This document shows, piece by piece, positions 13,124 to 35,299 of a DNA stretch of 64,000 bases. The notes beneath the pieces were generated by a model. It was not told the DNA's origin. It did no database searches and saw only the letters and a list, made by a program, of their open reading frames with translations. The translations under genes were made by a program, and so were the position numbers. The DNA is taken from positions 10,044,001-10,108,000 of the forward strand of contig OU015566.1 in NCBI GenBank assembly GCA_907165135.1. Reading direction: 5' to 3'. The DNA comes from Oikopleura dioica (taxonomy: Eukaryota; Animalia; Chordata). Each line of letters begins with the position of its first letter. Position 1 is the first letter of the stretch.

Positions 13124-14520
13124 ATGTCAAAAATTACACCTGGCGATGACAACAACGAAGAGAGCAGCAACAAGAAACTAAGAGGAAATCCAAGATTGCC
13201 GCCAATTGCGCCGATAGTGAAAATTAACAGCTTATCTGCATTTCAACTTGGAGCTAAAAGAGATTTTTACGATGACGGAGCGGTTCAATTTTGCTTTCTA
13301 CATGAGCTTTAGCTTTAATTTTCCGGTTTTAATATCAGTGATACTTTATCGGCCATTTGAATAATTATTTGAGACCTCAAGTGTATTTACATTGACCTTT
13401 AGTAAATAGAAACTGAGAAAAAACACTTCTAAGGACACCCTAAAATCTGAACCCGCCTGAAAAGAGAGCACAGTTTCAACATTTGATAACAATATAATGA
13501 GGAACAGTATAATTCCAGAAGAAGATGAGGCGCCAGAAAAGGTAACGTCTCTTTGATAATTTAATATTCGGTAGCTTGTTGTATAGAATTTCCTTCACAA
13601 CAAAAGGCAGGGCATTCTATTATTCTGAGCGCAAACTGTGCATTTACGAAAAAGATGAGGCCCCACTCGCGAGGGTTTTTGAAATTTCAACGAGAGATCG
13701 CTTCTTTTCGTAATAATGTTATCAAAGATGTGCTGCAGACAATCAATTTTGATATATCCCGAAATGGAACTATCAAAAAGGTAACTTCGGAGAAAAATAT
13801 TCTAGATCAAAATGAGCTGCAATAATTTTGGGTTTTTTTTAATCAAATTATCGAGAAATAATGGGAAAGAAGACCAAGTCCCGACATCAGCAGAAAGCAA
13901 TCAGTGACTTTATCAAAGACATGGATATCAGAATAGCATTATCCCAGAAAGCAGTAAAGCAAAAATGAGAAAGAGAAGACACCTAGCTTTTTTGACAAAA
14001 TCATTAGATATCCAACGAGCAAAGCATAAAAAACACTTGCTTGAGCGAAAAGCTAAAAGGGATAAATATCTTGAAGCAAATGAAGGCAAAGAGCAAAAAT
14101 TTAAAAATCTCGGGAAAACGATCTTGGGGGCTAACAAGCTTTTCAAGCTAGCGGTACTTCATAAGAAATCTTTTATTAGAAATCTTTTATTAGAAATCTA
14201 TTATTAGATCTTTTATAATCTTTTATAGATCTTTAATATATTTCTTTCAGTCGGCTGCGGATATACAATCATCAGAGCCATCGCAAGAGGTAAGACAATC
14301 AATGTTTACTCAAATGACTTTTACACCCGGCGGAAAAATTAAAAAATTTTTACCAAAACAGAAATTTTAGTTTCTTGAACTTTAGGTGACATTTTTGAAC
14401 TGGCACAGTTCTCGAACAAGATAATAAACCGTCCCGGCTGACAAGCTTTTTATGATGTCTGAGTTCGCATCGATCACAAAATCGATGCACAGATTTTGAC
14501 AAGTTTTTCAAAGTTCAAAA
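13124..14520 (+). CDS. Uncharacterised multi-exon protein; boundaries approximate
   Basis: ATG at 13124 (MSKITPGDDNNEESS...) followed by several short exon-like blocks bounded by GT/AG. No family recognised. Confidence 0.4.
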
Positions 14521-17915: not shown

Positions 17916-19807
17916 GCCTATCATTCCATCTATGCAAACTTCCAACTTGATGCAAGTACTAAAATCATTTTATACATCTGTTTTTCTTATTTAATTTTTA
18001 CTCACTGCCAGTTATATTTTCACTCAATACAAAAAAAAACAAACAACTAAAGTTGCTTCTTCGTCAATTTTATTTACAAGTGCCAGAAGAATATAAATCC
18101 ATGTCACTTTTTTATGAAAGAATCTGGAGAGTCTCTCTGTCCAAGTTCACTGTTGCCCACGTTGTGTCTAGCGTCGAGCGTCCGCGCTATCCCCACCGGA
18201 GCCTTTGCAGTACAGCATAGAAAGAAGCTGTTCTCATTCAATCCATGCTTTACTATCAAAGACTCAGTTGGCCGCGGAAAAATCGCTTTTCTCTCTTTCT
18301 CTATTTTTGAAGCTGGGTCTCTCAAGCGTATACTGAAAATGACTAGGGTCCATCACGTGCTTTTTTTCTTCCTCGTGAGCTCGGGCATTTTCCCTCAAGC
18401 AAATTCTGTCCGCTTATAATTCTGCATAAAAAATGCACTCTTTCTACCAGTTCAAGCTAGTTTTCATGAAAAAATAACCATGATTTTGTTGAAAAGAAGT
18501 GACAAAAAGTTATATATCTACCCTTTTATCCGGTATTGATTTGTTTTTCAGACTGCTTTTAATTTCTCTTGGACTTGCTAGTCCAGTCTTCGTGTTTTTT
18601 ATGAGCTGCTCTGTACGAAGCATCGACCAACGGCCAAATCAAAAGTCATGAGCAGGGTCACAGGACGAGCGCAAATAGTAACAGAGAAAAATTCTTAGAC
18701 GTAGGCAAAGTGAAATTATTCAGGGTGGACCGAGTTGACCTTGCGCTTCGGGGAGAGGGAGGGGCTTATGGCAAAATTTCTGCTGATTCGTTTTCTCGGT
18801 GCTGATTTCTTCAAATTAAGAATTCTAATTAGGTGTACCTCTTAATAAGAAATGATCTAGAAAAACTGACAAACGTGAAATTGTCGAAGGTCCCACCTGT
18901 ACCAGGCCTTATGTCCCTCAGCATATGCTTAAATCAAAACGAAAGATGATCACGTGGTTAAACCTGGATCCCCACGTGATTCTATCGTACGGCCCATACA
19001 TTGGAAACTAAAAGGCGAGGCCCAAGTTGGCAGGTCTGAGAGGTTTGAATTTTTTTAACTCTCTGAGTTTTGATTTCTTTGCATTCTCTGTTTTTTTAAG
19101 CCCTATTCGAAAGTGAAATTAGAAAAAAAAGTTGAGCAGCGTGCTTTCTTTCTTTCTGTGAGCATTCTCGTGAAAAACTCGAAAACATCTCGAAAAAGCG
19201 ACTCACGTGCGAGTGAAACGCGCGCGCAAGGGCACGCTCTCTTCGATGACTTCTTGTGCATAAATTTCCAGTGTTTCCTGTGTTCTAACCGAATAAGCTA
19301 AGTAAAAAATAGCTGAGTTCGGAATCTAGGCCGGAAGTTATGTTTATAGCTATCAGATGGCCATAAATCATCTTCAAGGCAGTTTAGATTTTGAAACATA
19401 CTCATCACAATTAGGAGCGCTTTAAGAGACTTACTGTATTCTCTCTAAAAACTTTTTGGTGAAAAATATTTTAAAGTTTTCGAAAAAATTCTGAAAATTT
19501 TCAAGCTCTGTAATAACGTCAGAGAGACACTAAGCAAAAGGTAAGGAATAGTCAACGCCTACAGAGCTCGAGTGGTGGTGTTTCATGGCCAACGGTGAGG
19601 GCGAGTTGTTGGAGTGAAAAACAAGGCGCTACTGCTGCCTTACCGACGCCTTTTTCTATTTCTTTCTCGAGTGTATTCTGATGATTCTGCTGCTTCTCGA
19701 ACTAATGAGCCGTGAATCTATTTTGTCTCTAGGAAATTTTGAGTCTGCATATTATTATTCATAATTTTGGTTACTGTCGTCAGGCTTATAAAACGTGTCC
19801 GCACGTG

Positions 19808-20097
19808 AGTAGTATATAAATGTCAGCCTTGCCGGACGCTCTCAAGTGGAAAGCACTTGAATTCAAGTACTTTCAAGTGCCTGCACCTGGCACCTAAATA
19901 AACAAACTATTGTGACTTGTTTCCGGTCAGTAATTGTCTTGCACTTGAAGTACTTGACACCTGAACATATTCTGAGCGCGAATTTTGAAAAGACAAAGTG
20001 AGCGCACTTGCGCCAGAACCAGTTGACCGTAACCGCGAGTATAAATCCCGGTTGATAAATCAGGAGCCCCAAAGGTCGCCAAAAATTCAAAATATAA
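19808..20097 (+). repeat. Left terminal inverted repeat of the mini-Polinton (290 bp)
   Basis: Reverse complement of 23982-24271, with 3 mismatches found by eye. Confidence 0.95.
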
Positions 20098-20131
20098 GGA
20101 GAAAAAATCTTTTTTTCTAACAAAAAATACA

Positions 20132-21375
20132 ATGACTAGACCGGATCGAAAAATTGTCAAAACACATTATCCAAAGGATAATTGCTCTGAAAGGTTATCC
20201 TTTATATTTGACGCGGATCCAAATTTATGCCTCGTCAAAAACAAAATACAAATTTTCTTTACTCTTGAACTCGACGAAAAGTACATCCCGGAAAATGGTT
20301 TTGGACCAAAACAATTTTCCACAGTTGATGTCGAACTACAGAGCCAGCTTGTGAGTGCTCCACGAACTCGTGGAGACTATTATTTGAATGATTGGCTACT
20401 TAAGAAGACAAATTTCAGCGCCGAGTATATGAAAACTTTTTTTCTGACAGAAGGGTACTTTGACGATTATAACTACAGTGAACTCTCCGAATCAGCAAAA
20501 AAGAACCTCGTGAGCAGTCGTAGAAGTGGCTGTCAACGAAAAGACGGAAAATACATTTATCAATTGATGATTATTCCAACAGATGGTTTTCTTCTTGACA
20601 ATAAGCCACTGCCTCCAAATAAGGAGATGAAGCTTACACTTCGACGGCAAGATGCAAAATTTTCGACCTTGAAAATTTCGGAAAATACACCAGATCTCAC
20701 TGATGCACTCGAACTCAAGGACTGCTATGCAAAAGTTGAATACATTTCAAGCCAGCATTTGCGAACGGAGCTATTTGAACATCGCAGCATCTCCTATGTA
20801 TATGATGACTTAAATGTAATTGTCAGATCCTTGACAAAGGGCGAAAAGATAGTGAGAATGGAAAATCTTTTTGGAGGAAAAACCCCAGCATTCCTTTTTG
20901 CAGGCATCATGCCTACAAGTTGCATCGATGGTGATAACGAGGGCGAATCAATCAGTCTTACGAGAAATGATCTACTCAGCTTCGATCTAGCGATTAATGG
21001 ATCATCTTGCACGGGTTATCCTATGGTAAGATAAACAGTCCTAAAACTTGATGACTAATTTTTGGATAGAAAATTAAAGCAGACTTCCCAATCGAGCCCT
21101 ATCTGAAATATCAAGATGTCATGGGAAACTTGATGAATGTCAAAACATATAAAGTGGACTCAATTTTCGATTTCAAAAAAGCATTCCTCTTTGCGCATAA
21201 GTTCGAAGGTGAAAACGAAGAAAATTCCGGCTGGGTTAGTGCAACTCTGGAGTTCAAGGATGTTGTCGACAAAAATTTGAGCTTGGTAGTCTGGACGATA
21301 GATATGGTGAAGGTTTCTATCGACGAATATGGTCAGATTGACAAGGATATAGTAAAAAAGATTTCCTCTGCATAA
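20132..21375 (+). CDS. Polinton-type double jelly-roll major capsid protein (PY-like), 399 aa, one intron at 21026-21069
   Basis: YIPENGFGPKQFSTVDVELQSQLV...YYLNDWLLKKTNFS, FGGKTPAFLFAGIM...FDLAINGSSCTGYP and C-terminal GWVSATLEF...LSLVVWT...VSIDEYGQI resemble the Polinton PY pattern. A 44-nt GT-AG intron joins the two ORFs in frame. Confidence 0.8.
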
Positions 21376-21482
21376 GAAATAATGAATAAAATATCTTTCC
21401 GATATATTTATTTTTGATTTAGCAGTATTCTTTTTTAGGTTTTTTTCTTCTTTTTTTCTTAATTATTGGTCGATTACGTTTC

Positions 21483-21965
21483 TTATTTTTCTGATCGGTG
21501 TAAGCATCGTTTATCCCTCTTTGCCGCCAATATTGTTCTCGTTGACTCAGACTGACTGAGATGCTGGACATTTTGCTCAAGTTTCAAATTGATATAGCCA
21601 AATTTAATTTCTGGTTTAACCGATGAGTCAGAGAGCGATTCAATATCAATTTCAATTGATACGAAATCCAAATTTCTAGATCGGAGTGTATTTATAGTTT
21701 CTTGAGTTGGTTGATAATTGTATGCCCCAGAGGACATGATAAAATTAGCGAGTTGTACTTTTCCAATTGTGTCCAACAGTGATATTTTGACGTGAAAATG
21801 GTGATTTCGCGGTAAATTTTCGATAATTATTCCAGCAGAATTAAGAGAAATCTGCCAGAATGATTCCTCATTGGCAAAAAAATTTTGCCTTTCGTCGAAC
21901 AGCCATAGAGTTTTCTTATTTTGCGTTGTAAGATTTAAGATCTTTGGCAATTTTTCGTAACTCAT
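21483..21965 (-). CDS. Probable minor capsid (penton, single jelly-roll) protein, 160 aa
   Basis: First true ATG at 21965. Beta-rich pattern, with C-terminal YNYQPTQETINTLRSRNLDFVSIEIDI...YINLKLEQ resembling the Polinton penton end motif. Its position inside the element supports this. Confidence 0.55.
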   Translation of the reverse strand: MSYEKLPKILNLTTQNKKTLWLFDERQNFFANEESFWQISLNSAGIIIENLPRNHHFHVKISLLDTIGKVQLANFIMSSGAYNYQPTQETINTLRSRNLDFVSIEIDIESLSDSSVKPEIKFGYINLKLEQNVQHLSQSESTRTILAAKRDKRCLHRSEK

Positions 21966-22890
21966 AGTAGTAGAACGATCCAGATATCTTACTGTCGTTA
22001 AAATGGGACAGTTTATACCAGACAATACCAGCTTTTTGCGATATAGCTCGTATTTTGTACTCTTCTGATGACCAATTTTGTTTGTATCCTTTATCGAAAA
22101 GACTCTTTTTTCGTAAAATACGAACAATGTTCCCAACTTGTAGACGAGGTTGTGCTAATAGCTTCAAATTTGGATATAATTTCTTAAATACCAAAGGAAT
22201 ATTATCATCAGACACCTCCCTTGGGGCTATCCCCGTTGAACGGTGAGGAGTTCCATTGTAGCCACGCACAATATCAGGAAGAACGTCTATCCATATTCTT
22301 GTTTTGTTATGGCTCATGTATTTTTCGAGGCGGGATTTAAGAGTTCTGATGACTCTTTCTGCCATCGATGCCTTGGTTTTCGTTTTGATACTGTAGTGAT
22401 GGATTTGAAAAGCATCAAACAGTCGCCGCATATCAGAATTATAAAATTCTTTACCCTCATCAGTGATGACTGTATTTGGGTACTCGTTCATTTCATCAAA
22501 AATTTCTGAAAACGCAGCAGAAACAGTTTTCTGATTCTTTTTCTTCAAGGGCTTTGCCCATATATATTTTGAAAAGCAATCGATCACAATCAGAATGTAG
22601 ACATTGTTTCTATTCGCAAACTTCATCTTGCTACTACGAGTGTATTCTATCAAATCCGCCATAAAAATTTGAAATGGGTGGTTGACGATAATTCTTCTTC
22701 TTGGAAAAACTCTCTTGACGATTCTACCATGTTTGCTTTGAGTCGCATTTTTTCTCAAGAAATCATTCAATTTTGCAGAGTAAGCGGGAGTACTTTGAAT
22801 ATTTGAGTATATCTGCTCAATATTGTCATCATTACTTATTTGAGTGCCTTTATTTGCTGTCAGAGCTTTCTTTTTGTTGCGAGTTCTCAT
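21916..22890 (-). CDS. Polinton-type (retroviral-like, rve) DDE integrase, 324 aa
   Basis: MADLIE (D), YILIVIDCFSKY, VITDEGKEF (D), MAERVIRTLK (E), YNGTPHRSTGIAP, LQVGNIVRI...FDKGYKQNWS, GSFYYYEL. Confidence 0.93.
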   Translation of the reverse strand: MRTRNKKKALTANKGTQISNDDNIEQIYSNIQSTPAYSAKLNDFLRKNATQSKHGRIVKRVFPRRRIIVNHPFQIFMADLIEYTRSSKMKFANRNNVYILIVIDCFSKYIWAKPLKKKNQKTVSAAFSEIFDEMNEYPNTVITDEGKEFYNSDMRRLFDAFQIHHYSIKTKTKASMAERVIRTLKSRLEKYMSHNKTRIWIDVLPDIVRGYNGTPHRSTGIAPREVSDDNIPLVFKKLYPNLKLLAQPRLQVGNIVRILRKKSLFDKGYKQNWSSEEYKIRAISQKAGIVWYKLSHFNDSKISGSFYYYELRKIAKDLKSYNAK

Positions 22891-23078
22891 ACTTTTTTCT
22901 AAAAGCAAAGAAAGATTTGAAGATAACTCTCCACGGATAGGTTATTTTTGCTTTTATGCCACAAGAACAACGGATTTTTCTCGATTGATTTGTCATTGAA
23001 ATAAAAAACACAAACAATCTTTGATAAATCAAATTTTAAGAAGCTCAGGGGCATTTATTTCACGTAAAGTAATCAGAG

Positions 23079-23954
23079 TCAGTAATCACTTTCTGAGCTT
23101 GTTGTTGAATCATCACTGGATTTGTCAGAGGAAGACTGATATCTTTTCCTCTTATTCGCTTGGTCTGCAGACTTCTTTTTAAGCTTCTTAACAGTCGCAT
23201 GAAAAGTTGGCTGCTTTGAATTGTATTTTTCTTTGATCTCAAAAAATCGCCGAAAATCATTTTCACTGATAATGTAAGATTTCATTCCGTTCACTGAAAA
23301 GCATTTGGGATACTCGCTAAATATATCCGTGAAAAGACGATAGTTTGATCGATGAGCCTGAGGGGAAAGATTAATCACATAGAATGGATATTTTTCGAAT
23401 TTCGAATCTTCTTCTGCAGCTTTATACGCTTCAGTTAGTCCAACAGCTCGACATCTTCGTAAATTTATTGACGCATCCAGACAATTACGAGTAAGAACTT
23501 GCATATTACAGCTGTTACCAATGTCACGTGCATATTTTCCTTTTGAATAGCTGTTTTGAGTCATTATCATCACACTAAGATTTCTCTTCCCAGATGTGAC
23601 TCTGAACAGATGATCGATGCATTCGGAGTTGGCTGCTTTATCATAGAGATCGTCGAGAATAAGAAGTGTGTGGCTTTCAAGTGAATCAATGTCGTCTTGA
23701 GTCGGTAAACCAACTGTAAATTGTATTGGAATGGATATTTTATCGCTTTCGTCCCAATCAACTGGTTTTTCTTTCAAGTATTTCGGATAGCAATAAATTA
23801 TTCGTCTCGGTTCATTTTCAAATAAGTCGAAATTTTCACAAAGTTTACCAGCCACATGAGTTTTGCCAGATTGTGATGATCCAGAAAAAAGGATTCTGAA
23901 AGGATAAGGAAATCTTAAATCCTTGCACACTTCTCCAGATATTGATAAACTCAT
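23079..23954 (-). CDS. A32/FtsK-HerA family DNA packaging ATPase, 291 aa
   Basis: YPFRILFSGSSQSGKT (Walker A), LLILDDL (Walker B), SVMIMTQN, RDIGNSCN, YPFYVINL. Confidence 0.9.
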   Translation of the reverse strand: MSLSISGEVCKDLRFPYPFRILFSGSSQSGKTHVAGKLCENFDLFENEPRRIIYCYPKYLKEKPVDWDESDKISIPIQFTVGLPTQDDIDSLESHTLLILDDLYDKAANSECIDHLFRVTSGKRNLSVMIMTQNSYSKGKYARDIGNSCNMQVLTRNCLDASINLRRCRAVGLTEAYKAAEEDSKFEKYPFYVINLSPQAHRSNYRLFTDIFSEYPKCFSVNGMKSYIISENDFRRFFEIKEKYNSKQPTFHATVKKLKKKSADQANKRKRYQSSSDKSSDDSTTSSESDY

Positions 23955-23981
23955 TTAATTATTTCTCTGCTTTTGGACTGT

Positions 23982-24271
23982 TTATATTTTGCATTTTTGG
24001 TGACCTTTGGGGCTCCTGATTTATCAACCGGGATTTATACTCGCGGTTACGGTCAACTGGTTCTGGCGCAAGTGCGCTCACTTTGTATTTTCAAAATTCG
24101 CGCTCAGAATATGTTCAGGTGTCAAGTACTTCAAGTGCAAGACAATTACTGACCGGAAACAAGTCACAATAGTTTGTTTATTTAGGTGCCAGGTGCAGGC
24201 ACTTGAAAGTACTTGAATTCAAGTGCTTTCCACTTGAGAGCGTCCGGCAAGGCTGACATTTATATACTACT
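23982..24271 (-). repeat. Right terminal inverted repeat of the mini-Polinton (290 bp)
   Basis: Reverse complement of 19808-20097. Confidence 0.95.
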
Positions 24272-24737
24272 CACGTGTAATGAGACTGTGGATAAAAAAC
24301 GCTAGTCTGGTCTGGATAACAAAAGATTAGCAGTAACTTATGCGTAATTTACACGCTGGAAACTTCAAGAAATTCCTTCTGAAAGTTGGATTGTGCAACA
24401 ATTCAAAACAAAGCTCGTAAACAAAACTATCTTAGGATGAAGTTTAGGATCAATTAAAGTCTTTTAATGCTCATTGATCTTTATTGACGACATTTTAACG
24501 TTACGCTTTTGATGCTCTCTATTTATAAAAAAGAAAACAGTAGACTTTTTAGACGTTGCTACAATAAGCGATTTAAAAATTAGATCGACCAGATTCTCAA
24601 GCAAATAAATGTCTGCTGAATGGACTTTATTTGCTCTCCTTGTTGATTTCTTTTATATTTTCTCGTTAACATTTATTGCGTAAATAGGCAGTTTAATAAT
24701 AACCTAGGTATGAAACGAATGAATGTGGGAAAGTAAT

Positions 24738-31100: not shown

Positions 31101-31191
31101 CGAAAGATTTTCTTGTAAGATGATCCAAAACGAGCGTTTTCGGATTGATTGAGGGCAACGATTCGCGAAAAATATCCTCAAGAATTACCAT
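28126..31191 (-). CDS. GLYCTK: Glycerate kinase (MOFRL family); one apparent frameshift near 28382-28409
   Basis: [42 protein letters not shown]...[16 protein letters not shown]|[26 protein letters not shown] 1,244-nt intron spans 28435-29678. Confidence 0.88.
28623..29581 (+). CDS. Cystine-knot (TGF-beta/hormone-like) small protein nested antisense in a GLYCTK intron
   Basis: Exons 28623-28843, 29293-29376 and 29425-29581 splice in frame via GT-AG (153 aa): ...ECCGCQL...[13 protein letters not shown]...[15 protein letters not shown]...KIKKCYC. 5' end uncertain. Confidence 0.55.
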
Positions 31192-31194
31192 GGC

Positions 31195-34100
31195 TAGGGT
31201 AAACGCACAAAAAAACTAACTTTTTCCCTCGAAAGAGTATTGACTTGAAACTTGGCATGGTGATAGATCATGCCAAAGTACTTTTCAAAATTTTTTTTTC
31301 AAAAAAATTTTTCAAGGTTTTCAACCTTTTTAAGCCTGGCAAAAGGCTAACTTTTGAGTGGATCATGTTCGAAGGCTCTAAAATAGCTAGATCAACGCGG
31401 AATGATCTCCTGATCATTTTCATAAAAAAAAATTTAGTGACAATACCTCCGATGACTCAAGAATTGCCGAAAACTGTTACGTAACCCTATTATGTAACAC
31501 AAATTCAGACTAATAATTTCTGGAGGACCAAAGAAATAAATCTAACTATTTTTCAACCCCTAAAAGTAATAATATTTTCCATCCCTTTTTCTGGAGGAGC
31601 TCGCGGAAGACTTTTTCAAGGAAAACATTGCATTGCTGGAAAAAATTTTTTTTTTTGAAAAAAAAATTAATTTTCGAATGAAATAAACAGAAAAAATCTT
31701 GATCATAACCTTAATAAAAACTACCTTCTTTAAAAAAAAACAAAAAAAAAATTCCAAATAACGAACACCATAAAAGCAAAACAAGTAGGGAGGGTATGCT
31801 TAAAGTAAAAAATGGGAGAGGGTGGGGTTGGGGACAAAACTGAGACTGATCACCTTAGTACTGCCTTCTTATCCCGGCCTTTGTCAAGCCCATTTCAATT
31901 TAAAAGCCAGGGACGGGGCTGAGACGGCCCGAAGGGCCGTCAAGCCCATTTCAATTTAAAAGCCAGGGACGGGGCTGAGACGGCCCGAAGGGCCGTCAAG
32001 CCCATTTCAATTTAAAAGCCACGGGACGGGGCTGAGACGGCCCGAAGGGCCGTCAAGCCCATTTCAATTTAAAAGCCAGGACGGGGCTGAGACGGCCCGA
32101 AGGGCCGTCAAGCCCATTTCAATTTAAAAGCCAGGGACGGGGCTGAGACGGCCCGAAGGGCCGTCAAGCCCATTTCAATTTAAAAGCCAGGACGGGGCTG
32201 AGACGGCCCGAAGGGCCGTCAAGCCCATTTCAATTTAAAAGCCAGGGACGGGGCTGAGACGGCCCGAAGGGCCGTCAAGCCCATTTCAATTTAAAAGCCA
32301 GGGACGGGGCTGAGACGGCCCGAAGGGCCGTCAAGCCCATTTCAATTTAAAAGCCAGGGACGGGGCTGAGACGGCCCGAAGGGCCGTCAAGCCCATTTCA
32401 ATTTAAAAGCCAGGGACGGGGCTGAGACGGCCCGAAGGGCCGTCAAGCCCATTTCAATTTAAAAGCCAGGGACGGGGCTGAGACGGCCCGAAGGGCCGTC
32501 AAGCCCATTTCAATTTAAAAGCCAGGGACGGGGCTGAGACGGCCCGAAGGGCCGTCAAGCCCATTTCAATTTAAAAGCCAGGGACGGGGCTGAGACGGCC
32601 CGAAGGGCCGTCAAGCCCATTTCAATTTAAAAGCCACGGGGCTGAGACGGCCCGGGTCAAGCTGAGACGGCCCCGAAGGGCCGTCAAGCCCATTTCAATT
32701 TAAAAGCCAGGGACGGGGCTGAGACGGCCCGAAGGGCCGTCAAGCCCATTTCAATTTAAAAGCCAGGGACGGGGCTGAGACGGCCCGAAGGGCCGTCAAG
32801 CCCATTTCAATTTAAAAGCCAGGGACGGGGCTGAGACGGCCCGAAGGGCCGTCAAGCCCATTTCAATTTAAAAGCCAGGGACGGGGCTGAGACGGCCCGA
32901 AGGGCCGTCAAGCCCATTTCAATTTAAAAGCCAGGGACGGGGCTGAGACGGCCCGAAGGGCCGTCAAGCCCATTTCAATTTAAAAGCCAGGGACGGGGCT
33001 GAGACGGCCCGAAGGGCCGTCAAGCCCATTTCAATTTAAAAGCCAGGGACGGGGCTGAGACGGCCCGAAGGGCCGTCAAGCCCATTTCAATTTAAAAGCC
33101 AGGGACGGGGCTGAGACGGCCCGAAGGGCCGTCAAGCCCATTTCAATTTAAAAGCCAGGACGGGGCTGAGACGGCCCGAAGGGCCGTCAAGCCCATTTCA
33201 ATTTAAAAGCCAGGGACGGGGCTGAGACGGCCCGAAGGGCCGTCAAGCCCATTTCAATTTAAAAGCCAGGGACGGGGCTGAGACGGCCCGAAGGGCCGTC
33301 AAGCCCATTTCAATTTAAAAGCCAGGGACGGGGCTGAGACGGCCCGAAGGGCCGTCAAGCCCATTTCAATTTAAAAGCCAGGGACGGGGCTGAGACGGCC
33401 CGAAGGGCCGTCAAGCCCATTTCAATTTAAAAGCCAGGGACGGGGCTGAGACGGCCCGAAGGGCCGTCAAGCCCATTTCAATTTAAAAGCCAGGGACGGG
33501 GCTGAGACGGCCCGAAGGGCCGTCAAGCCCATTTCAATTTAAAAGCCAGGGACGGGGCTGAGACGGCCCGAAGGGCCGTCAAGCCCATTTCAATTTAAAA
33601 GCCAGGGACGGGGCTGAGACGGCCCGAAGGGCCGTCAAGCCCATTTCAATTTAAAAGCCAGGGACGGGGCTGAGACGGCCCGAAGGGCCGTCAAGCCCAT
33701 TTCAATTTAAAAGCCAGGGACGGGGCTGAGACGGCCCGAAGGGCCGTCAAGCCCATTTCAATTTAAAAGCCAGGGACGGGGCTGAGACGGCCCGAAGGGC
33801 CGTCAAGCCCATTTCAATTTAAAAGCCAGGGACGGGGCTGAGACGGCCCGAAGGGCCGTCAAGCCCATTTCAATTTAAAAGCCAGGGACGGGGCTGAGAC
33901 GGCCCGAAGGGCCGTCAAGCCCATTTCAATTTAAAAGCCAGGGACGGGGCTGAGACGGCCCGAAGGGCCGTCAAGCCCATTTCAATTTAAAAGCCAGGGA
34001 CGGGGCTGAGACGGCCCGAAGGGCCGTCAAGCCCATTTCAATTTAAAAGCCAGGGACGGGGCTGAGACGGCCCGAAGGGCCGTCAAGCCCATTTCAATTT

Positions 34101-35209
34101 AAAAGCCAGGGACGGGGCTGAGACGGCCCGAAGGGCCGTCAAGCCCATTTCAATTTAAGGGACGGGGCTGAGACGGCCCGAAGGGCCGTCAAGCCCATTT
34201 CAATTTAAAAGCCAGGGACGGGGCTGAGACGGCCCGAAGGGCCGTCAAGCCCATTTCAATTTAAAAGCCAGGGACGGGGCTGAGACGGCCCGAAGGGCCG
34301 TCAAGCCCATTTCAATTTAAAAGCCAGGGACGGGGCTGAGACGGCCCGAAGGGCCGTCAAGCCCATTTCAATTTAAAAGCCAGGGACGGGGCTGAGACGG
34401 CCCGAAGGGCCGTCAAGCCCATTTCAATTTAAAAGCCAGGGACGGGGCTGAGACGGCCCGAAGGGCCGTCAAGCCCATTTCAATTTAAAAGCCAGGGACG
34501 GGGCTGAGACGGCCCGAAGGGCCGTCAAGCCCATTTCAATTTAAAAGCCAGGGACGGGGCTGAGACGGCCCGAAGGGCCGTCAAGCCCATTTCAATTTAA
34601 AAGCCAGGGACGGGGCTGAGACGGCCCGAAGGGCCGTCAAGCCCATTTCAATTTAAAAGCCAGGGACGGGGCTGAGACGGCCCGAAGCCCATTTTTAAAA
34701 ATTTTATCAAAAATTTCTTATTAAAAAAAATAAAATTCTTAATTTTGAATTCTTCCATCATCCGGATGTTTTCAACCGGACAAAGTCCTCCAGAAGTTCT
34801 CTGTGTGATCACGTGATATTTGTCAATAAATTTTATAAAAAATTTAGGATTTTGTTTACTAAATAACAAAAATCATTATTCTTCCAGCAAATTACTGGTC
34901 TTCCAGCAAGAAACAGGAGGTCCTCCAGGTGATTCCTGATCGATCAGAGGCATGGTCACTAAATTTTTTTATCTCAAATTGATTAGAATTTCGAGGCGCT
35001 TCGAACTAGACTATCCACGACTCCGTACCTTCACCCACTCGAAAGATAGATTTTTGGACCTCTTTAGAGGGCGCTAGAATGATGCCAAGTGGTTTTTTCA
35101 AAAATTTTTTTTCTGAAATAGTATTTTCTCATGTTTTGCAATCACGTCACTTAAAATAAAGTTTCTACGACCCCTAGAAAAAAAGCTGATTTTTTGTGCG
35201 TTTACCCTA
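31195..35209. mobile_element. Non-autonomous hAT-type DNA transposon (4,015 bp) carrying a satellite array
   Basis: Perfect 20-bp TIR TAGGGTAAACGCACAAAAAA (imperfect to ~31 bp); 8-bp direct repeat ACCATGGC at 31187-31194 and 35210-35217. No transposase ORF. Confidence 0.88.
31883..34694 (+). repeat. 56-bp tandem repeat, ~50 near-identical copies
   Basis: Unit GTCAAGCCCATTTCAATTTAAAAGCCAGGGACGGGGCTGAGACGGCCCGAAGGGCC, with period 56 (e.g. 32221 to 32277). A few indel variants near 32021, 32081, 32631-32680 and 34158. Confidence 0.98.
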
Positions 35210-35299
35210 ACCATGGCGGCAATTTTTCAATCTAGGAACACAAAGATAATTATAAATATGTATACATAAGTGGGCTTTTTTCAATTCAGAATATACCGC

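Follow-up and report, generated by a model that had tools for sequence, protein, structure and literature searches.

Within a 64,000-nucleotide stretch of the Oikopleura dioica genome (assembly GCA_907165135.1, contig OU015566.1, positions 10,044,001 to 10,108,000 of the forward strand; hereafter the window), positions 19808-24271 hold a 4,464-bp element of the Polinton/Maverick type that is recently inserted and polymorphic between samples. It combines an RVE integrase with a predicted virion module, consisting of a double jelly-roll (DJR) major capsid protein, a penton candidate and a packaging ATPase, and no frame between its terminal inverted repeats (TIRs) reaches the size of a polymerase. 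In our judgment it is an even call that the element is a helper-dependent Polinton satellite, which keeps its own virion and integration module and depends for its copying on a protein-primed polymerase supplied by some full-size Polinton. A wider reading, put forward tentatively, is that it represents an old lineage of 4.5-kb integrating double-stranded DNA satellite viruses of larvaceans, self-packaged, with a complete DJR virion module and an integrase, no replication gene, and an intron and overprinted genes as adaptations to the nucleus.

The limits of the element are defined by four features.
19802-19807, unstranded: left target-site duplication (TSD), CACGTG, kept as a single copy by the empty-site contigs of X2, X3 and X4
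19808-20097, plus strand: left TIR, 290 bp, beginning with (AGT)2 and containing a 26-bp imperfect palindrome at 19849-19874 (TIR comparison)
23982-24271, minus strand: right TIR, 290 bp (TIR comparison)
24272-24277, unstranded: right TSD, CACGTG (empty-site contigs)

The two repeats differ at three positions, and the element ends on both sides in AGTAGTAT, a terminus of the (AGT)2 type. A sequence-only reading that preceded this analysis had described near-perfect 290-bp repeats, AGTAGT termini and a 6-bp flanking duplication, and all three descriptions hold. Since CACGTG is palindromic, the look of a duplication could have been accidental, and the empty site was therefore checked in other samples. 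In three of the four DNA runs (X2, X3, X4), a contig passes from 19801 to 24272 with six letters that fit either side, that is, with a single CACGTG. This clean empty allele, of the kind the sequence-only reading had proposed to look for, establishes CACGTG as a true TSD and the insertion as polymorphic. Such (AGT)2 ends with a 6-bp TSD are those of Mavericks with a protein-primed DNA polymerase B (pPolB) (PMC8097293, cited here and below from the available passages). The insertion lies between host genes, in a compact genomic neighborhood with short introns. The left TIR is likely to serve also as the promoter of the outer gene. At 13621-13650, a 30-bp segment matches the inner TIR at 77% and contains an exact 12-mer; inner-TIR matches in the window number three against 0.2 expected, two of the three being the TIRs themselves, and the remaining segment is possibly a relic or a host promoter motif in common.

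The core of the element recurs in the other samples, with copies in X2, X3 and X4 that differ by 0-10 bases. In X4, the core (20110-24022) is a single unbranched contig of 3,913 bp with 10 differences and no gaps, and the TIR contig starts exactly at 19808, while the TIR contig of X2 reads through the TSD. The empty-site contig of X4 stands at the depth of the flanks, so the element copy of X4 appears to lie elsewhere. X3 carries a core with seven substitutions together with the empty site at the window locus; X3 and X4, which come from two studies, thus appear to carry the same element inserted elsewhere. The proposal of a streamlined, recently mobile element of Polinton type is borne out by this polymorphic insertion and by the near-identical core in other samples. 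In X4 (120 against 64) as in X3 (83 against 47-51), the TIRs are covered about twice as deeply as the core, contig depth being a rough measure, and so these two runs give no sign of a near-identical full-length master or partner segment; a partner sharing fewer than about 31 terminal bases would escape the comparison.

Between the repeats, the gene content is as follows.
20132-21025, plus strand: major capsid gene, exon 1, 298 codons, predicted double jelly roll (Atlas neighbors, structure model)
21026-21069, plus strand: capsid intron, 44 nt, GT..AG, with splicing predicted from the same position in P0179 and L001
21070-21375, plus strand: major capsid gene, exon 2, 101 codons, for a protein of 399 aa in total (59% identity to P0179)
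21419-21571, minus strand: basic open reading frame (ORF), 50 aa with 17 lysine or arginine residues, overlapping the end of the penton gene, in the position of Maverick pw (L001 equivalent, ATG signal in homologues)
21483-21965, minus strand: penton candidate, 160 aa, single jelly roll with a C-terminal helix (structure model, gene position)
21916-22890, minus strand: RVE (DDE) integrase, 324 aa, intact (Pfam rve, motifs, homologues)
22850-23200, minus strand: ORF X, overprinted on the ATPase tail, ATG at 23200, in the position of Maverick pm (ATG signal in ATPase tails)
23079-23954, minus strand: packaging ATPase candidate, 291 aa, with Walker A GSSQSGKT and Walker B LILDD (motifs, weak Pox_A32)

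The four main genes cover 3,484 bp, or 78% of the element, and the outer start codons stand 34 bp (capsid) and 27 bp (ATPase) inward of the TIRs; the earlier estimates of length (about 4.5 kb), coverage (about 78%) and outer gene position (28-35 bp inside the TIRs) agree with these measurements. In a scan of all frames of the element, the longest stop-to-stop frame besides the four genes' own is 101 codons long and is capsid exon 2, so that no frame of polymerase or protease size lies between the TIRs, as the sequence-only reading had held. Set against the definition of Polintons/Mavericks, the element has the RVE integrase, the (AGT)2 TIR ends and the 6-bp TSD, and it has neither a frame of pPolB size nor an adenovirus-like cysteine protease, every long frame being assigned to another gene. 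The further claim that there is no room for a deleted gene carries little weight: recombination of whatever kind that brings genes up to the TIR promoters would produce the same appearance.

The identification of the integrase is firm: the protein matches Pfam rve above the cut-off (E 4.3e-11), shows the motifs ADL, TDEG and AER at residues 78, 143 and 177, and has 271 homologues at E values of at most 1e-30. Directly upstream of its ATG, at 22891-22910 on the minus strand, lies a pyrimidine tract ending in TTTTAG, which could be a cis- or trans-splice acceptor; the host uses spliced-leader operons. The ATPase is supported as an A32/FtsK-like packaging ATPase by Walker A and Walker B motifs conserved in 20 aligned sequences, with the family assignment drawn partly from context: the Pox_A32 match is weak (E 0.013, below the cut-off), and a sequence search of PDB gave no significant match.

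The major capsid gene is not uninterrupted, as had been thought. Its frame meets a stop after codon 300, inside the 44-nt intron, and resumes in another frame to 21375, where exon 2 is 59% identical (E 6e-43) to residues 299-389 of the O. dioica capsid protein P0179. This 392-aa GenBank gene model (008-23) is spliced at the same position, and a related locus, the one obtained in a metagenome scan (L001), has a 38-nt intron there, which identifies the frame break as an intron and not a lesion. The metagenomic gene calls of five capsid relatives (P0001-P0005) diverge or stop at this point. A tblastn split and the sequence give the L001 capsid gene a second intron, which the window element does not have. 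In P0006, a more distant capsid relative, similarity is lost after about 80 residues, which suggests yet another intron position. As to the fold, the protein has ESM Atlas neighbors at 0.95-0.97 that include Capsid_N and DJR-like clusters (recognition value below 2300), and the fold matches of the exon 1 model are mostly DJR capsids, namely those of iridovirus, Sputnik, PBCV-1, PRD1 and D13, with a best Z of 6.7, although the model itself is of low confidence (predicted local distance difference test, pLDDT, 40). Neither Pfam nor a PDB sequence search returned a significant match. Taken together, these lines give moderate support to a DJR major capsid protein.

The penton candidate follows directly after the integrase, as do the corresponding genes in L001 and in vertebrate Mavericks (PMC8097293), and in the window it overlaps the integrase end by 50 bp. 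Its model (pLDDT 76) is a single jelly roll that aligns with the mavirus penton over 117 residues (Z 8.7, root-mean-square deviation 3.6), a score tied with those of unrelated jelly rolls; among the 50 viral matches listed, a 161-aa adintovirus protein has the highest query TM-score (0.48). There is no match in Pfam and nothing above 0.78 in the ESM Atlas. One of four penton matches, P0028, a repetitive bacterial protein of 4,421 aa, was excluded from the alignment. The window protein is treated as a candidate penton whose single jelly-roll fold points to no one family in particular. Of the gene identities proposed earlier, that of the integrase is thus firm and those of the ATPase and the major capsid are supported, while the penton call is less specific; both capsid calls survive structure prediction, the major capsid with a weak model and the penton non-specifically.

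The count of exactly four genes probably does not stand either, as two small overprinted ORFs are likely to be genes on the strength of conserved start signals, which would give the element more than four. In the basic ORF, an overlapping equivalent with an ATG is present in L001 (7 of 15 residues identical, pairwise E 2e-4), and four of five penton homologues have an ATG-compatible dipeptide at the aligned column, against a background of 29/729 (4%). A point to the contrary is one X3 variant with a 1-nt deletion in the homopolymer tail at 21451. The 50-aa product is possibly a DNA-binding core protein. ORF X encodes 46 aa, ending at 23060; splicing of a 45-nt GT..AG segment (23063-23019) would extend the product to 101 aa, and the ORF would then overlap the start of the integrase. 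An ATG-compatible dipeptide occurs at offset 27-34 in 19 of the 20 ATPase tails against 4.5 expected (at most 11 in 2,000 shuffles), the sequences being related and not independent. Neither ORF has a Pfam match. The available passages of PMC8097293 place pw and pm of Mavericks where the window has the basic ORF and ORF X, a likeness of position only.

The question of whether the compact form is an old lineage was addressed through its relatives. Sister homologues of the capsid (97% identity), integrase (95%), ATPase (93% over 273 aa) and penton (78% over 154 aa) keep their frames without alignment gaps, and for each of the four (P0026, P0039, P0041, P0044) the longest ENA contig measures 4,303 bp. 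Apparently, judging by this common size, one contig carries all four sister genes. If so, a diverged sister holds the four genes in an equally small space, which suggests indirectly that selection has maintained the compact form over a long time. The unequal identities point to selection, strongest on the capsid. A marine metagenome (X5) contains gap-free pieces diverged by 10-13% over capsid, penton and integrase. In X3, the polymorphisms in the four main genes comprise three synonymous and two non-synonymous changes, too few for a ratio of non-synonymous to synonymous rates (dN/dS). Between the window and L001, capsid exon 1 has a proportion of synonymous differences (pS) of 0.92 and of non-synonymous differences (pN) of 0.27, with synonymous sites saturated, a comparison that bears on the family and not on the compact lineage. 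Searches farther afield returned little: the ATPase alignment found one distant locus in viral contigs (L002, 26% identity), whose long ORFs contain no YGDTDS-type motif, and prokaryote genomes gave three weak matches, to the ATPase only. Three RNA runs (X16, X19, X21) hold a few short partial matches on the element; in this diverged population, the neighboring host gene itself was covered by short pieces at less than 95% identity or not at all. A second compact lineage, considered on the basis of a 5,614-bp contig size common to ATPase P0012, integrase P0047 and capsid P0178, was dropped, as that clade may be of the 24.7-kb P_Od1.2 type.

If the element is a satellite, its cycle might run as follows. 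Host RNA polymerase II would transcribe inward from promoters in the identical TIRs, yielding a capsid mRNA that is spliced and, on the opposite strand, a chain of overlapping frames for the ATPase, ORF X, integrase, penton and basic ORF. The element's integrase would excise and reinsert it with a 6-bp TSD; the excised linear DNA could be copied from its (AGT)2 ends by the protein-primed polymerase of a helper Polinton and packaged by the element's own capsid proteins, with the maturation protease borrowed or dispensed with. Helper-dependent adenovirus vectors offer a precedent, in that DNA retaining only the terminal repeats is replicated in trans by a protein-primed polymerase. Candidate helpers are the two O. 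dioica Polintons P_Od1.1 (22,700 bp, with a protease and a fragmented capsid gene) and P_Od1.2 (24,732 bp, with capsid and ATPase), in whose description polymerases were not scored (PMC4028283 Table S1). In the same runs as the element, diverged capsid, integrase and ATPase matches run into other sequence and are further candidates for a helper.

Several observations weigh against this reading. Copy number, from rough contig depth, appears low, at about one per diploid set in X3 and X4. A genome of 4.5 kb is small for known double jelly-roll capsids, and the capsid model is poor and covers exon 1 only. The single 4,303-bp sister contig is deduced from a common size and not from reading its sequence. 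Lastly, viral contigs contained no close relative of the capsid, penton, integrase or ATPase and no match to the terminal 19-mer.

An unlikely alternative is that the element arose only recently from a full-size Oikopleura Polinton, by deletion or rearrangement, and was mobilized on a few occasions by enzymes of its parent, with genes intact only through youth. Full-size Polintons with capsid and ATPase do exist in O. dioica (PMC4028283), the block of integrase, penton and small ORF is in canonical order, and the cores of X2, X3 and X4 are as similar as a young derivative would be. Yet the unbranched X4 core and the merely twofold TIR depth reveal no near-identical parent, the capsid gene points the opposite way from its place in the L001 layout, from which one simple deletion is therefore insufficient, and a sister set at 78-97% identity apparently fits these four genes into 4.3 kb. 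The twofold depth bears equally on the idea of a bipartite Polinton, in which the window element would be one segment and a mutually dependent second element would supply the polymerase behind the same ends, as it leaves no room in X3 and X4 for a partner with near-identical TIRs. We regard this as improbable, notwithstanding one X3 contig, with its loose end at 19840, that carries a diverged palindrome resembling the TIR and the reassortment of replication and morphogenesis modules described for this virus group in the available parts of bioRxiv 10.64898/2026.10.13.758929.

Similarly improbable is a replication-free capsid transposon, moved by its integrase through Ginger-type cut-and-paste, whose capsid would carry excised copies between cells or animals with no helper. 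The integrase, TIRs and predicted capsid, penton and ATPase would be everything such an element needs, and a low copy number fits it. One excised copy per cell, though, would be a poor substrate for virion production, candidate helpers exist, and the retained (AGT)2 ends fit protein-primed initiation, even if they also fit recognition by the integrase. Hardly probable at all is a virophage-like lifestyle, in which some unrelated large DNA virus infecting the host would replicate the element. Large DNA viruses of animals are known to have Polinton-like hyperparasites, but those in the available passages of PMC11296320 are about 12 kb long and encode a PolB or helicase themselves, and a spliceosomal intron would imply nuclear host transcription and not a cytoplasmic virus factory.

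Should the satellite reading hold, the element would be an unusually small capsid-encoding member of the Polinton group and, as part of an old satellite lineage, the smallest described genome found for the Polinton-adenovirus lineage and the first satellite there to drop the polymerase while keeping the capsid. Polintons are defined by their polymerase; an element that has dropped it and has kept capsid, penton and ATPase under apparent selection would argue that particles matter for its spread. To our knowledge, nobody has yet observed virions of an animal Polinton; with a polymorphic 4.5-kb element in a planktonic animal that can be cultured, the question becomes testable. The element would also set a minimal complement of genes for the group, and its conserved intron points to adaptation of a viral capsid gene to the splicing of its host. 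In the reductions that are more often considered for Polintons, the direction is opposite, and loss of the capsid genes leaves a transposon (PMC4028283).

Elsewhere in the window, a second TIR element lies at 31188-35216, with 38-bp arms beginning CCATGGCTAGGG and inner inverted arms of 78 bp. It encloses a GC-rich stretch of tandemly repeated 56-bp units that starts near 31845, contains no ORF of at least 120 aa, and shows no obvious TSD by eye.

Among known systems, the closest named relatives, and the only homologues assigned to a named organism, are O. dioica genes in GenBank, ATPase 008-21 (65% identity) and capsid 008-23, which we guess belong to P_Od1.2. Together with the 44-nt intron and the marine origin of the runs, they fit a host from the O. 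dioica complex of larvaceans. Given that full-size Polintons are published for this species, the element likely arose from such Polintons by gene loss; it is one-fifth the size of P_Od1.1 and P_Od1.2. The gene model of 008-21 (P0013) has a Cys-rich RING-like stretch fused to the ATPase, which suggests that in the larger relative an accessory gene precedes the ATPase. In L001, the integrase, penton, small basic ORF, an extra gene and the capsid follow one another on one strand; the extra gene (L001 789-1315), an ORF of about 170 aa with an intron, separates the penton block from the capsid, matches nothing in Pfam and is absent from the window element. Elements labeled MAV are annotated in O. 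dioica in the available portions of PMC8502044, 10.1101/2023.08.22.554363, PMC4350176, PMC5240408 and PMC8008620.

With animal Polintons and Mavericks in general, as far as the available text of PMC8097293 goes and in PMC4028283, the element shares its long TIRs with (AGT)2 ends, its 6-bp TSD, the RVE integrase and ATPase genes, the predicted major capsid gene and the candidate minor one; it also shares the two convergent gene blocks and the orders integrase, penton, small ORF and ATPase, small ORF (PMC8097293). It differs from them in having no pPolB, protease, PZ-sized gene or accessory region, in its length of 4.46 kb against 12.7-24.6 kb for intact vertebrate elements, and in its capsid intron, the genes of intact vertebrate Mavericks being intronless (PMC8097293). 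The adenovirus-like cysteine protease occurs in 74% of Polintons (PMC4028283), and the smallest element of Table S1 of that paper measures 10,272 bp. The Nematostella elements Polinton-N1, N1A and N1B_NV (14-15 kb) likewise keep capsid, penton and ATPase without a protease, at three times the size (PMC4028283 Table S1, polymerases not scored). The "N" of their name denotes non-autonomous elements.

Polinton-like viruses (PLVs) and Tlr elements have the same minimal module of major capsid, minor capsid and ATPase without a protease. In the available passages of PMC4642659, however, PLVs mostly have no RVE integrase, and those described have a polymerase or helicase, whereas the window element has the integrase and no replication gene. 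It thus departs from the PLV type, that is, a capsid of the PgVV-type clade, usually no RVE and an own polymerase or helicase. The PLVs of entomopoxviruses, of about 12 kb, carry replication genes (PMC11296320), and protist elements measure about 14-40 kb (PMC10120064, available passages). Replication modules are mobile and reassort with morphogenesis modules in this virus group, and the abstract, one section and further passages of bioRxiv 10.64898/2026.10.13.758929 mention no replicase-free element. In the literature covered, we found no polymerase-less element of such size with capsid and integrase; the original Maverick/Polinton papers, larvacean transposon surveys and Repbase, which may describe one, lay outside that coverage. 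Capsid-encoding satellite viruses and capsid-forming phage satellites have their own capsid genes and need a helper for a missing step. The window element compares with them in this respect, with the difference that the missing step here is the DNA polymerase and that the element is an integrating double-stranded DNA element of an animal nucleus.

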